Source of the DNA: Shigella phage ESh7
Sequence record: ON528720
Strand: one strand, 5' to 3'
DNA length: 39,724 nucleotides
The notes beneath the pieces were generated by a model that did not search any database, was not told where the DNA came from, and saw nothing but the letters and a program-made list of their open reading frames with translations. Below are positions 5,180-23,633 of the stretch, piece by piece. The position numbers were made by a program, and so were the translations under genes. How positions within the stretch are numbered: the first letter of the stretch is position 1; each line of letters opens with the position of its first letter.

Positions 5180-6972
<1,793 letters not shown>

Positions 6973-14386: not shown

Positions 14387-15319
14387 ATGGCTGAATCTAA
14401 TGCAGACGTTTATGCGTCCTTCGGTGTGAACAACGCGGTAATGACCGGAAGCACACCTACTGAACACGAACAGAATATGCTGAGTCTCGATGTTGCTGCC
14501 CGTGATGGCGATGATGCAATCGTGCTTAGCGAGGAACCAACTTCCCATAACGATGACCCATATGCGGCAGGTGCAGACCCGTTCGCTGGTGGTGAAGATG
14601 ATGAGGGTCGCATTCAGGTTCGTATCAGTGAAGATGGCAATGAAGCCGAGTTAGACACTGCTGGCGATAACTCTGAGGTGGAGACCGAAGGTGATGACGT
14701 TGAGTTTGAACCGCTGGGTGACACTCCAGAAGAACTGAGCCAAGTGACTGAGCAATTAGGCAAGCACGAAGAAGGCTTTCAGGCGATGGTCGAGCAGGCA
14801 GTTGAGCGTGGACTGAGCGCAGACTCTGTGACTCGCATCTACGAAGAGTATGAAGCCGATGGCATCTCTGAGAAATCCTATGCGGAACTCGAAGCTGCTG
14901 GATATAGCCGTGCCTTTGTGGACTCCTACATCTCCGGTCAGGAAGCCCTTGTAGACCAGTACGTCAATCAGGTAGTTGCCTTTGCTGGTGGTAAGGAGCG
15001 CTTTAGCGCAATCCATACGCACCTTGAAGCGACCAACCCGGCTGCGGCTGAGTCCCTTGAGGCTGCCATGATGAACCGAGACTTGGCGACTATCAAAGCG
15101 ATTATCAATCTGGCTGGTGAGAGTTACACGAAGAAATTCGGTAAGCCTGCCAACCGTAGTGTTACCAAGCGTGCTACTCCGGTTAAACCTGTAGCTCGTC
15201 AGAAAGAGGGCTTTACGAATCAGGCTGAGATGATTAAAGCTATGAGTGACCCGCGTTACCGTAGTGATGCTGCCTACCGTCAAATGGTAGAACAGAAGGT
15301 TATCGACTCCAGTTTCTAA
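14387..15319 (+). CDS. 9: capsid assembly (scaffolding) protein
   Basis: 310 aa, highly acidic; position between portal and major capsid. Confidence 0.9.
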   Translation: MAESNADVYASFGVNNAVMTGSTPTEHEQNMLSLDVAARDGDDAIVLSEEPTSHNDDPYAAGADPFAGGEDDEGRIQVRISEDGNEAELDTAGDNSEVETEGDDVEFEPLGDTPEELSQVTEQLGKHEEGFQAMVEQAVERGLSADSVTRIYEEYEADGISEKSYAELEAAGYSRAFVDSYISGQEALVDQYVNQVVAFAGGKERFSAIHTHLEATNPAAAESLEAAMMNRDLATIKAIINLAGESYTKKFGKPANRSVTKRATPVKPVARQKEGFTNQAEMIKAMSDPRYRSDAAYRQMVEQKVIDSSF

Positions 15320-15340
15320 TTAACCCTCACTAAAGGGAGA
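15317..15340 (+). promoter_or_regulatory. T3 RNA polymerase promoter (gene 10 promoter)
   Basis: TAATTAACCCTCACTAAAGGGAGA exact consensus; followed by strong RBS TAAGGAGAT. Confidence 0.85.
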
Positions 15341-15475: not shown

Positions 15476-16519
15476 ATGGCTAACATTCAAGGCGGACAGC
15501 AAATTGGTACTAATCAGGGTAAGGGTCAGTCCGCAGCGGACAAATTGGCGCTGTTCCTGAAAGTGTTCGGCGGTGAAGTCCTGACGGCTTTCGCTCGAAC
15601 CTCCGTGACCATGCCTCGTCACATGCTGCGCTCTATTGCTTCTGGTAAGTCCGCACAGTTCCCTGTGATTGGTCGCACCAAAGCTGCTTACCTGAAACCG
15701 GGTGAGAACCTCGATGACAAACGTAAGGATATCAAACACACCGAGAAGGTAATCCACATTGATGGCCTGCTGACTGCGGACGTTCTGATTTACGACATTG
15801 AAGACGCGATGAACCACTATGACGTTCGCGCCGAGTACACCGCACAGTTGGGTGAATCTCTGGCGATGGCGGCTGACGGTGCTGTACTGGCTGAACTGGC
15901 TGGTCTGGTTAACCTGCCGGACGCCTCCAATGAGAACATCGAGGGTCTCGGTAAGCCTACTGTACTGACTCTGGTTAAGCCGACCACTGGCGACCTGACT
16001 GACCCGGTTGAGCTGGGTAAAGCGATTATCGCTCAGTTGACCGTTGCTCGTGCTGCTCTGACCAAGAACTACGTTCCGGCTGCTGACCGTACTTTCTACA
16101 CCACTCCTGATAACTACTCCGCGATTCTGGCTGCTCTGATGCCGAACGCTGCAAACTATCAGGCACTGATTGACCCTGAGCGCGGTACTATCCGTAACGT
16201 GATGGGCTTCGAAGTGGTTGAGGTTCCGCACCTGACTGCTGGTGGTGCTGGTGATGACCGCGAGGACACTCCGGCTGGCCAGAAGCACGCTTTCCCGGCG
16301 ACTTCCAGCACTACCGTTAAGGTTGCTCTGGATAACGTTGTTGGCCTGTTCCAGCACCGCTCTGCGGTTGGTACGGTCAAGCTGAAAGACTTGGCTCTGG
16401 AGCGCGCTCGTCGTGCGAACTATCAGGCTGACCAGATTATCGCTAAATATGCGATGGGTCACGGCGGTCTGCGTCCAGAAGCTGCTGGCGCTATCGTTCT
16501 CCCAAAGGTGTCGAAGTAA
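15476..16519 (+). CDS. 10A: major capsid protein 10A
   Basis: 347 aa; strong RBS; synteny; most abundant structural gene followed by terminator. Confidence 0.95.
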   Translation: MANIQGGQQIGTNQGKGQSAADKLALFLKVFGGEVLTAFARTSVTMPRHMLRSIASGKSAQFPVIGRTKAAYLKPGENLDDKRKDIKHTEKVIHIDGLLTADVLIYDIEDAMNHYDVRAEYTAQLGESLAMAADGAVLAELAGLVNLPDASNENIEGLGKPTVLTLVKPTTGDLTDPVELGKAIIAQLTVARAALTKNYVPAADRTFYTTPDNYSAILAALMPNAANYQALIDPERGTIRNVMGFEVVEVPHLTAGGAGDDREDTPAGQKHAFPATSSTTVKVALDNVVGLFQHRSAVGTVKLKDLALERARRANYQADQIIAKYAMGHGGLRPEAAGAIVLPKVSK

Positions 16520-16773
16520 TTCCCGACCCCACTGGAGTTACTCTTAGTCAGAAGACTATGAGCTTAGACGTTGGGGCTTCTAAAGCCCTGACTTCTACGG
16601 TAACTCCGGCTGATGCAGTACAGACAGTGACATTTACGTCTTCCAATGCGAAGATTGCCACGGTCGATGCCTCTGGTACTGTAACTGCTGTGGGCGCTGG
16701 CTCCGCTGACATCACTGCGACTACTGTGAATGGCCTGACGGCTGTCTGCAAGGTCACTGTGAGAGCAGTATAG
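15476..16773 (+). CDS. 10B: minor capsid protein 10B (10A plus -1 frameshift C-terminal extension containing an Ig-like Big_2-type domain)
   Basis: -1 frame after CCCAAAG encodes ...[85 protein letters not shown]; T7 makes 10B by -1 frameshift. Confidence 0.55.
16501..16507 (+). promoter_or_regulatory. candidate -1 programmed frameshift slippery heptamer C_CCA_AAG
   Basis: X_XXY_YYZ heptamer in the gene 10A frame, 4 codons before its stop; -1 frame is open from 16447 to 16773. Confidence 0.5.
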
Positions 16774-16830
16774 CCTCCCGTAGAAGGCTAAGGTCTTTAC
16801 CGGGGATTTACTTTCCTTCATTACTTTATG

Positions 16831-16872
16831 AACCCCTTGGGTGCCCTCTGAGGGTATCTGAGGGGTTTTTTT
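16831..16872 (+). terminator. T-phi-like transcription terminator
   Basis: AACCCCTTGGGTGCCCTCTGAGGGTATCTGAGGGGTTTTTTTG: GC stem-loop plus U-tract, same architecture as T7 T-phi. Confidence 0.8.
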
Positions 16873-16874
16873 GC

Positions 16875-16897
16875 TTTAAACCCTCACTAACAGGAGG
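16875..16897 (+). promoter_or_regulatory. T3 RNA polymerase promoter (AACAGGAGG variant)
   Basis: TTTAAACCCTCACTAACAGGAGG. Confidence 0.7.
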
Positions 16898-21389: not shown

Positions 21390-23633
21390 ATGGCTAGTAA
21401 ACTAAATAGTGTTTTAGGCAACATGGCGACTCCCGGTATGGAACGACTCCGGGGCGTCAAAGGTATGGACTACCGAGCAGCAACCATTCAGGCTGAACAA
21501 CCAAGAGCGAGTCTTCTGGACTCCATTGTTCGATTCGCTAAGGCTGGTGCCGATATGTACATGGCGAAAGATGAACGCGATAAGCAACGAGCCGATGAGC
21601 GCTCCAACGAGATTATCCGTAAGCTGACCCCTGAGCAGCGCCGACAGGCTATCCAGAATGGTACACTGCTGTATCAGGATGACCCATACGCAATGCAAGC
21701 CTTGAAGTTCAAGACCGGGCGTAACGCTGCGTTCCTCGTTGACGATGAGGTTCAACAGGCCATCAAAGAGGGTCGCTTCCGTACTCGTGAAGAGATGGAG
21801 CAGTATCGTCACTCACGCCTACAGGAGCACTCGAAGTCGTTCGCTGAGCAGTTCGGCATCAATGAGATGGACGAGGAGTACCAGAAGGGTTTCAATGCGA
21901 ACATCACCGAGCGCAACATCGCTCTGTATGGGGCACATGATACCTTCCTGAGTGACCAAGCGCAGAAGGGTGCAATCCTGAACTCGAAGGTTGAACTCAA
22001 TGGTGTCCTGTCTGACCCTGACCTTCTGTCTAGTCCTGAGTCCGGTGAGTTCTTCCAGAACTACATTGACAACTCCTTGGTGACAGGGATGACCGACAAT
22101 CAGGCTCAACAGGTTATCTCTTCGTCCCTGAATGACGTGCTACAGCGTCCGGGTGGTGCCGCCTTCTTGCAGAACATTGAGAACCGCAAGGTGACTCTTA
22201 ATGGCGCTACGACTACCTATCGTGAACTGATGGGTGACGAACAGTGGCAGGCCATGATGATTAAGGCACAGCACACTCAATTCCAGAACAACGCTAAGTT
22301 AACCGAGAAGTTCCGACTGGATATTAACTCAGCGCTTAACCAAGCGGACACTGGTAAAGGTTGGGAGACTCTTCAAGGTATCAAGGCCGAACTTGATAAG
22401 ATTCAGCCGGGTGAAGAGATGACCCCTGAGCGCGAGTGGTTGATTTCCGCACAGGAACAGATGCGTACCCGCTTCAAGCAGGAACAGGCTGAGACAGCCA
22501 AGCTGATGGACAAGCAACAGAAGACCCTGAATAAATATTTGGTCATCGACAAGCAGTTCCAGAAGCGCCTCAATGGTGAATACGTCTCGACCAACTATAA
22601 GGACATGCCGACCAACGAGAACACTGGTGAGTTTACACATAGCGATATGGTCAACTACGCGAACCAGAAGTTAGCGGAAATCGAGGCGATGGACTTAACA
22701 CCTGAACAGAAAGACAAACTGAAATTGGACTACCTACGGGCAGACTCCAAGGAAGGTGCTTTCCGTGCGGCGTTTGGTGAGATGATTACGGACGCGGGTA
22801 ACGAGTGGCAGGCTGCGGTGATTAACGGTAAGATGCCTGAGAGCACACCAGCGATGGACAACCTTCGTCGCATCCGCAACACTGACCCTGACCTGATTGC
22901 CTCTCTGTATCCCGACAAGGCCGAGTTGTTCCTGACGATGGACATGTTGGATAACCAAGGTATCGACACGCAGGTTCTTATTGACGCTGATAAGTCCCGC
23001 GCACAGAAGACCAAGGAGATGCAGTTTGAGGATGACCGAGCGTGGGCTGCTATGATGAACGATTCAAAGAATCCTCAAATCAAGTACATGCCTTCGAGCG
23101 TCCAAGGGTATGCCCGGAAGATTTATGATTCCGTGAAGTACCGGACAGGGAACCCTGACATGGCAACCGAACAGGTCGCAAAGTTCCTCTCTGATTCAAC
23201 GACTACGTTCTCCAGTAGTGATGTTGATGGCGATACCTATGGTGTCCTGCCGAAGAACATCCTTACTGTTTCGGATGACCCTAAGTCGTGGGAGCAAGGG
23301 AAGAACATTCTGGACGAAGCCATTAAGGGAATCACAGCGGCGAACCCTTGGATTACCAACAAGCAACTGACGGTGTACCAGCAAGGCGATTCAATCTACC
23401 TGATGGACACAACCGGACAGGTTCGCATTCGGTATGACCAAGAGTTGCTCCAGCGTGAGTACCAGCGTACCGCACAGATGCAAGCTGAGGCAGCACGAGA
23501 GAAAGCCATCAAAGAGGCCAACAAGCGTGCCCCAATAAGTCGTGCAACACAGGCGCGTGAAGAAGCGCGTAAACGTGTCCAAGAGAAACGGAAGAAGACT
23601 CCGAAGTACATCTATGGACGTAAAGAAGACTAA
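21390..23633 (+). CDS. 15: internal virion protein C
   Basis: 747 aa, same as T7 gp15; synteny. Confidence 0.9.
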   Translation: MASKLNSVLGNMATPGMERLRGVKGMDYRAATIQAEQPRASLLDSIVRFAKAGADMYMAKDERDKQRADERSNEIIRKLTPEQRRQAIQNGTLLYQDDPYAMQALKFKTGRNAAFLVDDEVQQAIKEGRFRTREEMEQYRHSRLQEHSKSFAEQFGINEMDEEYQKGFNANITERNIALYGAHDTFLSDQAQKGAILNSKVELNGVLSDPDLLSSPESGEFFQNYIDNSLVTGMTDNQAQQVISSSLNDVLQRPGGAAFLQNIENRKVTLNGATTTYRELMGDEQWQAMMIKAQHTQFQNNAKLTEKFRLDINSALNQADTGKGWETLQGIKAELDKIQPGEEMTPEREWLISAQEQMRTRFKQEQAETAKLMDKQQKTLNKYLVIDKQFQKRLNGEYVSTNYKDMPTNENTGEFTHSDMVNYANQKLAEIEAMDLTPEQKDKLKLDYLRADSKEGAFRAAFGEMITDAGNEWQAAVINGKMPESTPAMDNLRRIRNTDPDLIASLYPDKAELFLTMDMLDNQGIDTQVLIDADKSRAQKTKEMQFEDDRAWAAMMNDSKNPQIKYMPSSVQGYARKIYDSVKYRTGNPDMATEQVAKFLSDSTTTFSSSDVDGDTYGVLPKNILTVSDDPKSWEQGKNILDEAIKGITAANPWITNKQLTVYQQGDSIYLMDTTGQVRIRYDQELLQREYQRTAQMQAEAAREKAIKEANKRAPISRATQAREEARKRVQEKRKKTPKYIYGRKED

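Follow-up and report, generated by a model that had tools for sequence, protein, structure and literature searches.

Near the end of its major capsid gene, Shigella phage ESh7 has a second reading frame, offset by -1, that stays open well past the capsid stop codon. We asked how this frame is expressed: as an extension of the capsid protein reached by ribosomal frameshifting, as a separate small gene, through slippage of RNA polymerase, or not at all, the break between the two frames being an error or a recent lesion. The window, by which we mean the whole stretch of DNA that was analysed, is the 39,724-nt ESh7 sequence (ON528720). From sequence comparison, we put at roughly 0.9 the probability that the frame belongs to a T3-type minor capsid protein 10B, made by a -1 frameshift at C_CCA_AAG and ending in a Big_2 (bacterial Ig-like group 2) extension.

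The genome was placed in the genus Teetrevirus, that is, among the T3-type phages. Its first 25 kb align with Klebsiella phage Patroon at about 96% identity and with Yersinia phage phiYeO3-12 at about 95%. In the gene 10 region, identity rises to 97-99% with many Teetrevirus genomes, including GlastosBack, phiYe-F10, KNP3, Patroon and SH2. Between 15300 and 17000, Patroon (MK608335) and phiYe-F10 share 98.5-98.7% of their nucleotides with ESh7 and are the nearest sequenced relatives that carry its Big_2 allele. An earlier interpretation of the locus, made from the letters alone (hereafter the sequence-only reading), had missed the T3-type, rather than T7-type, nature of the phage.

Gene 10 and the open -1 frame at its 3' end

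The features of the region are collected in Table 1. The 10A protein of ESh7 is 97.4% identical in amino acid sequence to that of T3 and 98.0% identical to that of phiYeO3-12. Its gene ends with CTC (16499-16501) CCA AAG GTG TCG AAG and the stop codon TAA (16517-16519), so that the protein terminates in IVLPKVSK. Upstream of the gene, AATTAACCCTCACTAAAGGGAGA fits the T3 promoter consensus, and its offset, 158 nt 5' of the 10A ATG, equals that of the annotated 'promoter phi10' in phiYeO3-12. On the other side of the locus, the ESh7 terminator has its homologues in the Tphi annotated for phiYeO3-12 and in the terminator of Patroon. Two minus-strand ORFs in this region (16548-16757 and 16564-16821) were dismissed, since transcription in T7-like phages proceeds on one strand only and these ORFs mirror the coding strand.

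Table 1. Features of the gene 10 region of ESh7, with positions in the window
Feature	Position	Strand	Basis
T3-type phage RNA polymerase promoter phi10, AATTAACCCTCACTAAAGGGAGA; drives gene 10 transcription	15318..15340	+	sequence reading; phiYeO3-12 offset
Gene 10A, major capsid protein, 347 aa, 0 frame	15476..16519	+	ORF; Pfam Gp10A-like, E=3.8e-111
-1 frame open 5' of the slip site; translation not expected here; no ATG, GTG or TTG	16447..16506	+	ORF reading
Slippery heptamer C_CCA_AAG, predicted -1 ribosomal frameshift site	16501..16507	+	phase reading; homology to annotated slippage
Predicted 10B extension in the -1 frame, 88 codons (ends KVTVRAV) and TAG stop	16507..16773	+	translation
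Candidate 3' stimulatory hairpin, 9-bp stem AGUAAUUCC/GGAGUUACU	16515..16542	+	folding
Big_2 (bacterial Ig-like group 2) domain, extension residues 9-82	16531..16752	+	Pfam PF02368
In-frame ATG, Met18 of the extension, rival start	16558..16560	+	71-aa ORF; some annotations
Tphi, major late transcription terminator, 18-bp stem and U-run, 3' of 10B	16830..16878	+	homology

The sequence-only reading had pointed to a slippery heptamer close to the end of 10A, and direct reading of 16501-16507 bears this out: the letters fit X_XXY_YYZ in the proper phase, and AAG is the fourth codon ahead of the 10A stop TAA. In the -1 frame no stop codon occurs from 16447 to 16770, between TAA at 16444-16446 and TAG at 16771-16773. 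Translation from 16507 gives exactly the 88 appended residues that had been predicted; added to residues 1-344 of 10A, they make a fused product of 432 aa, again the predicted length. The accompanying claim that the frame has no start codon is correct for 16447-16557, where neither ATG nor GTG nor TTG occurs, and fails beyond that point, where there is an in-frame ATG at 16558. The heptamer, its phase, the open -1 frame and the Big_2 extension are confirmed as observations.

The heptamer taken alone is not significant: CCCAAAG is found seven times in ESh7, counting both strands, against 4.4 copies expected. In-phase heptamers of the form V_VVA_AAG occur only twice in long plus-strand ORFs, and at the other one (24131) the -1 frame stops after one codon. 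The finding rises above chance because of the Big_2 match and the conservation across relatives, not because of the heptamer as such.

The extension matches the Big_2 Ig-like family

The Ig-like identity that had been proposed for the extension was upheld by a profile search. The Pfam family Big_2 (PF02368) matched the extension with 59.3 bits (E=3.6e-16), against a gathering cut-off of 22.8 bits, and the match spans profile positions 3-78 of 79. The counterparts in T3, UNO-SLW4, KoPa-1 and phi15 also passed the profile threshold. When the extension was compared with solved structures by phmmer, Big_2 domains were found in 9cuy_c (E=2.9e-11), 7z47_G (E=1.8e-10) and, more weakly, intimin (E=3e-3). 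An AlphaFold2 model of the 88-aa extension was all-beta with nine strands and of low confidence (pLDDT 55.8); its input alignment held five sequences, four of them near-identical or truncated. The Ig-like fold assigned to the extension is thus a prediction from homology. Many Gram-positive phages have homologues of this Big_2 domain at the ends of their major head and tail proteins.

The same arrangement in T3 and its relatives

T3 and phiYeO3-12 share with ESh7 not only the genus and the gene order 9, 10A/10B, Tphi, 11 but also the details of the junction: the identical heptamer occupies the corresponding site, likewise four codons ahead of the 10A stop, and is followed by the linker (GV, then G or E) and by a single Big_2 domain. 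The first 12 extension codons of T3 are as in ESh7, and its extension as a whole has 89 codons, compared with 88 in ESh7. In T3, gp10B exceeds the 347-aa gp10A by 86 residues; it is found in particles and is dispensable (PMC3276506). Because 344 + 89 and 347 + 86 both come to 433 aa, a shift at CCCAAAG in T3 matches the published length.

Two close relatives have the gene annotated as a joined CDS. The phiYeO3-12 record (AJ251805) reads 'minor capsid protein 10B; ribosome slippage at 22682-22687; -1 frameshift', and those six positions (CCCAAA) map onto 16501-16506 of ESh7. In Patroon, the joined CDS is named 'Frame shift product'. Patroon and phiYe-F10 have the identical heptamer and the same Big_2 allele as ESh7, but their extension runs to 94 codons and ends in KAVEPPVEG. 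Relative to them, a GAG to TAG change at 16771 removes the last six residues in ESh7, past the domain, and ESh7 also shows K to R at 16763 and G to E at 16514.

A 2016 review of recoding states that the T3 coat protein extension reached by -1 frameshifting is Ig-like and that the one of T7 is not (PMC5009743), in agreement with what the sequence-only reading said of T7. The novelty implied by that reading is contradicted, since the event in T3 and phiYeO3-12, at the identical heptamer and with an Ig-like extension, was already published and publicly annotated. The ESh7 finding is a rediscovery of gene 10B of T3-type phages, which was already known and which near-identical genomes have annotated. 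Primary work on T3 is attributed to Condreay et al. 1989 and Fraser et al. 2006, and that on T7 frameshifting to Condron et al. 1991.

With T7 itself, ESh7 has in common the gene, the position of the predicted -1 frameshift a few codons before the 10A stop, and a C-terminally extended product that co-assembles, or in ESh7 would co-assemble, with 10A. The two differ in the slip site, which is G_GUU_UUC in T7 and C_CCA_AAG in ESh7, and in the appended sequence: T7-like loci have a shorter extension, with about 52-66 codons open in the -1 frame (...LTPQQKAARTRAANKAAKLAA...). The only T7-type extension scanned, that of locus L011, gave no Pfam match.

Natural variants narrow down the point of the shift

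We compared the junction with related loci taken from GenBank and IMG/VR. Fourteen of these keep the A_AAG core and a -1 frame open into Big_2, and the 12 Teetrevirus loci among them keep the full C_CCA_AAG, which is identical in T3, in phiYeO3-12 and in every Teetrevirus locus with a Big_2 extension that was examined. Several natural variants delimit where the ribosome would change frame. In one locus (L010), a 15-nt deletion places TGA directly after CCA_AAG, and the -1 frame is still open into Big_2; in another (L006), the 0-frame stop has moved up to one codon past the heptamer. At the opposite border, the -1 frame of two Pseudomonas phages (L020 and L022) opens only 27 nt before the shift point. 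Taken together, the 0-frame stops of the first pair and the upstream -1 stops of the second confine the shift to about 28 nt, and A_AAG is the only slippery motif within this stretch that is common to those loci.

The codons that follow the slip site evolve as protein-coding sequence in the -1 frame. We compared pS with pN over the 16-17 codons that separate the slip site from Met18, and both comparisons point to purifying selection: between ESh7 and Pseudomonas phage UNO-SLW4 there are 9.2 synonymous and 2.8 non-synonymous differences (pS 0.71, pN 0.08), and between ESh7 and T3 there are 4.0 and 2.0 (pS 0.30, pN 0.05). The remaining two frames contain stops across these codons.

The selection on these codons bears on the strongest of the competing explanations, according to which Big_2 is encoded by a separate small gene beginning at ATG 16558, whose free 71-aa protein would bind the capsid non-covalently or have some other role. 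The ATG is indeed present, and its Met is conserved in all relatives, including the Pseudomonas phages. Many GenBank records annotate a stand-alone CDS that starts there or further in, under names such as 'structural protein with Ig domain', 'minor capsid protein', 'major tail protein' and 'capsid decoration protein', and the SH2 paper gives TCAGAAGACtATG as the ribosome-binding context. However, GAAGAC is a poor Shine-Dalgarno sequence, and in the -1 frame strong purifying selection acts on the 16-17 codons 5' of the ATG, where there is no start codon. The boundaries of the domain also argue against a start at this point: the Big_2 match sets in at residue 9 and the PDB alignments at residues 5-7, ahead of Met18 in either case, and a protein starting at Met18 would therefore lose the first Big_2 strand. 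What is left would be a 71-aa Ig domain without a capsid-binding part. The stand-alone starts disagree with one another (54, 71 and 77 aa), as expected of automatic gene callers, whereas the T3 gp10B is experimentally known as a 433-aa virion protein and slippage is annotated in phiYeO3-12. We therefore regard a separate gene as very improbable, though a measure of initiation at the conserved ATG may occur alongside the frameshift.

A -1 fusion identical to the one proposed would also arise if RNA polymerase slipped at the AAA run, giving a fraction of mRNAs with a base too many or too few and making a ribosomal shift superfluous. Known slippage of RNA polymerase depends on homopolymeric A or T stretches of about 6-9 nt or longer (reviewed in PMC5009743); the heptamer offers no more than A3, next to C3. 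It conforms exactly to the tandem X_XXY_YYZ rule and is the best ribosomal heptamer in E. coli; moreover, those relatives that have another site carry G_GUU_UUC, the demonstrated ribosomal site of T7. We consider slippage of the polymerase still less probable than a separate gene. That the break between the frames reflects faulty sequencing or assembly, or a recent inactivating mutation, the true gene being an in-frame capsid-Big_2 fusion or a decaying remnant, is scarcely credible. Single-base frame errors are common in assemblies, and ESh7 does carry private 3' changes such as GAG to TAG at 16771. However, at least 14 genomes or contigs sequenced independently of one another, T3 and phiYeO3-12 among them, show this frame arrangement with the 0-frame stop and the heptamer; purifying selection acts on the extension, and A3 and C3 runs are not prone to sequencing error.

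Proposed synthesis of 10B and role of its domain

Under the preferred reading, a -1 ribosomal frameshift at C_CCA_AAG, most ribosomes would terminate at 16517-16519 and release the 347-aa major capsid protein 10A. A minority would slip in tandem by -1, the P-site tRNA-Pro moving from CCA to CCC and the A-site tRNA-Lys from AAG to AAA, and would then read 88 codons in the -1 frame up to TAG at 16771-16773. In the resulting 432-aa minor capsid protein 10B, a short Pro-rich linker would join the complete HK97-fold capsid body to a single Big_2 Ig-like domain. Since 10B is expected to co-assemble with 10A, a sub-stoichiometric share of the capsid subunits would present this Ig-like domain, facing outwards. 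For T3 and T7, it is known that 10B is made, is present in virions and is dispensable (PMC3276506).

By analogy, the Big_2 domain likely serves in weak binding to surface carbohydrates, be they those of the cell envelope, of a capsule or of mucin glycans. A preprint states that the predicted Ig-like domain of T3 interacts with mucins and that a benefit for adsorption has yet to be demonstrated. An adhesion function is also plausible from other phage Ig-like domains. T4 Hoc and P2_50 of Vibrio phage Peru-2 display Ig-like domains on the capsid exterior and have been proposed to adhere weakly to glycans or host surfaces; unlike the predicted 10B, they are separate products that bind the assembled shell, with neither a covalent extension nor recoding. 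A C-terminal Ig-like domain that programmed frameshifting adds to a fraction of the copies is known from the capsid protein of Lactobacillus phage A2 and from capsid or tail proteins of Listeria phages A118, A500 and PSA (PMC5009743). The proteins and slip sites of these phages are unrelated to those of ESh7, some of the shifts are +1, and the systems are not orthologous.

ESh7 would be a further instance of a known strategy in which recoding lets a T7-like capsid display an Ig-like domain in sub-stoichiometric amounts. The gene 10B frameshift of K1F has been used by phage engineers to display Ig-like adhesins on some subunits. For annotation, the consequence is practical: most close relatives in GenBank have this region mis-annotated as a stand-alone protein of 54-77 aa, called 'hypothetical', 'major tail' or 'Ig domain' protein, and the correct call is a joined 10B CDS of the kind that phiYeO3-12 and Patroon have.

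Frameshift efficiency and a candidate stimulator

How often ribosomes would shift at this site can be judged from reporter studies. C_CC.A_AA.G was the best of all 64 heptamers tried in E. coli, where it gave 54% frameshifting with the IS3 pseudoknot, a few per cent at most where the 3' context was favourable, and about 0.3% without a stimulator (PMC4066793); C_CCA_AAG has elsewhere been described as highly shift-prone in E. coli (PMC5009743). Because the heptamer alone yields only about 0.3%, some stimulator is to be expected.

We searched for an RNA element with single-sequence folds, with RNAalifold on six sequences and with an Rfam scan. Folding gave a hairpin with arms at 16515-16523 and 16534-16542, which begins 7 nt past the heptamer, a canonical spacing. 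Its predicted energy in ESh7 is -9.6 kcal/mol and its z-score, -1.86, is weak; the T3 counterpart (z=-0.56) folds no better than shuffled sequences. One compensatory pair was seen, and the hairpin is deleted in L010. In the Pseudomonas relatives (Pifdecavirus), folding of the corresponding region was likewise no better than that of shuffles. The Rfam scan of the region gave no family match, and no Shine-Dalgarno-like sequence was seen 6-17 nt 5' of the heptamer. A larger structure at 16530-16612 (z=-2.35 in ESh7) was rejected, as it is not conserved in T3, where the sequence is about 50% different. The 3' hairpin is thus a possible frameshift stimulator, a candidate from folding that is poorly conserved outside Teetrevirus. 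In T7, frameshifting needs a distant 3' element in the terminator region (PMC5009743), and the equivalent region of ESh7 is Tphi.

Exchange of modules behind the slip site

The Big_2 domains of ESh7 and T3 share 65% of their amino acids, and the nucleotide comparison shows how abruptly this difference sets in. As far as about 16540 the two are 97-100% identical; beyond it the value drops to 63% and then to about 50%, and the break lies some 35 nt past the slip site. Because the identity falls so sharply past about 16540, it appears that the body of the domain has been exchanged while the heptamer and linker were kept. This pattern in the sequences indicates that the ESh7 Big_2 body is a module swap relative to T3. 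The ESh7 allele was also found in phiYe-F10, Patroon, SH2, KNP3 and GlastosBack.

Slip sites and modules were found in several combinations. C_CCA_AAG or GAA_AAG is followed by Big_2 in Teetrevirus and Pifdecavirus; G_GUU_UUC is followed by a non-Ig tail of the T7 type in T7-like loci, by Big_2 in Pseudomonas phage phi15, and by an unclassified, beta-rich open -1 frame of 103 codons in L014. A T3-like 10A in L011 has G_CCA_AAG and a T7-type tail. This variety fits the published promiscuous shuffling of Ig domains, which sometimes land out of frame (PMC5009743). A separate observation concerns Pseudomonas phage KoPa-1, in which the module consists of Big_2 plus a GDSL/SGNH esterase; a literature search on this capsid-esterase arrangement found nothing specific to it.

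Promiscuous shuffling of Ig domains in phages is, as a general idea, already published. A more particular proposal is compatible with the sharp break in identity and with the recurrence of the identical junction in a different genus; we offer it tentatively and consider it somewhat doubtful. According to it, the segment from 16501 to about 16542, comprising the slip site, the 12-codon Pro-rich linker and the candidate hairpin, may act as a conserved 'display adaptor' behind which Studiervirinae swap capsid-surface modules through recombination, and the ESh7 allele would reflect adaptation to a glycan specificity other than that of T3, rather than mere drift.

Extension modules behind other slip sites

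The Big_2 family is not confined to phages that carry the slip site of the window. In Pseudomonas phage phi15, a Big_2 domain (Pfam, E=1.5e-8) is encoded in the -1 frame behind the T7-type heptamer and is therefore also reached via another slip site; its record lists the domain as a separate ORF37, 'putative capsid decoration protein'. The same T7-type heptamer precedes the -1 ORF of an IMG/VR locus (L014), which contains much beta-strand-like sequence (…VHTVAIGGDSLKVTLVGL…TLVTVSFEGSERMTFKLVVTN) and has no match in Pfam. This ORF may be a further, unclassified capsid extension module.

In Pseudomonas phage KoPa-1, the -1 frame at the capsid gene junction spans 482 open codons, and 473 of these lie past the slip site. 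Encoded in it are a Big_2 domain (Pfam, E=6e-11), behind this a GDSL/SGNH lipase-acylhydrolase domain (PF13472, E=2e-9), and then about 200 further residues, whereas the extension of the sister phage UNO-SLW4 has just the 89 codons with Big_2. If made by frameshifting, the KoPa-1 extension would yield an esterase-bearing capsid protein. PP496427 lists it as a 457-aa CDS of its own, named 'structural protein with Ig domain'. The junction (…EK|) is shared, and the slip motif is GAA_AAG.

Coordinates of extension modules and junction variants in related loci
Locus	Source	Position (nt)	Feature
L014	IMGVR_UViG_2974609713_000001	1572-1880	G_GTT_TTC, then 103-codon -1 ORF
L021	Pseudomonas phage phi15 (FR823298)	1435-1716	Big_2 in -1 frame behind G_GTT_TTC
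L022	Pseudomonas phage vB_PpuP-KoPa-1 (PP496427)	473-1498	capsid gene
L022	as above	1465-2910	extension region
L010	IMGVR_UViG_3300038674_000011	about 1190-1451	junction variant
L006		about 1590-1610	junction variant: 0-frame stop one codon past heptamer
L011		about 380-540	junction variant

Variation at the junction and in gene 10

Of the natural variants at the junction, L010 lacks 15 nt. This deletion puts a TGA directly 3' of CCA_AAG and takes away the candidate hairpin's 5' arm, yet the -1 frame is still open. In locus L011, a T3-like 10A occurs together with a T7-type extension that is not Ig-like; its slip motif, G_CCA_AAG, is imperfect.

GlastosBack, phiYe-F10 and Patroon are the nearest relatives of the window, which differs from them in the gene 10 region by several private changes. 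A GAG to TAG change at 16771 stops 10B six residues early, so that its extension has 88 codons versus 94 in the three relatives, and EPPVEG, which lies C-terminal to the Big_2 domain in the relatives, is lost. Private differences are also found at 16763 (AAA to AGA, K to R), at 16514 (GGA to GAA, changing E to K in 10A and G to E in 10B) and at 16632, and the U-run of the terminator (T-run at ~16866) has one T more than in the relatives.

Annotation of the extension and start of the record

Public records, among them OR896841, OR896851, KT008108 and NC_047864 (loci L001, L003, L004 and L024), do not agree on the 10B extension. It is entered as a 54-aa 'minor capsid protein 10B' or under such names as 'major tail protein', 'major head protein', 'hypothetical protein' and 'cell adhesion domain-containing protein'. 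These entries are without exception stand-alone CDSs with differing starts; the right annotation is a joined frameshift CDS.

Set against the standard T3-like genome map, the window does not start at the terminal repeat. Its position 1 aligns with Patroon and phiYeO3-12 at about position 6,600, so that its 39.7 kb represent a complete Teetrevirus genome in permuted or differently opened form.
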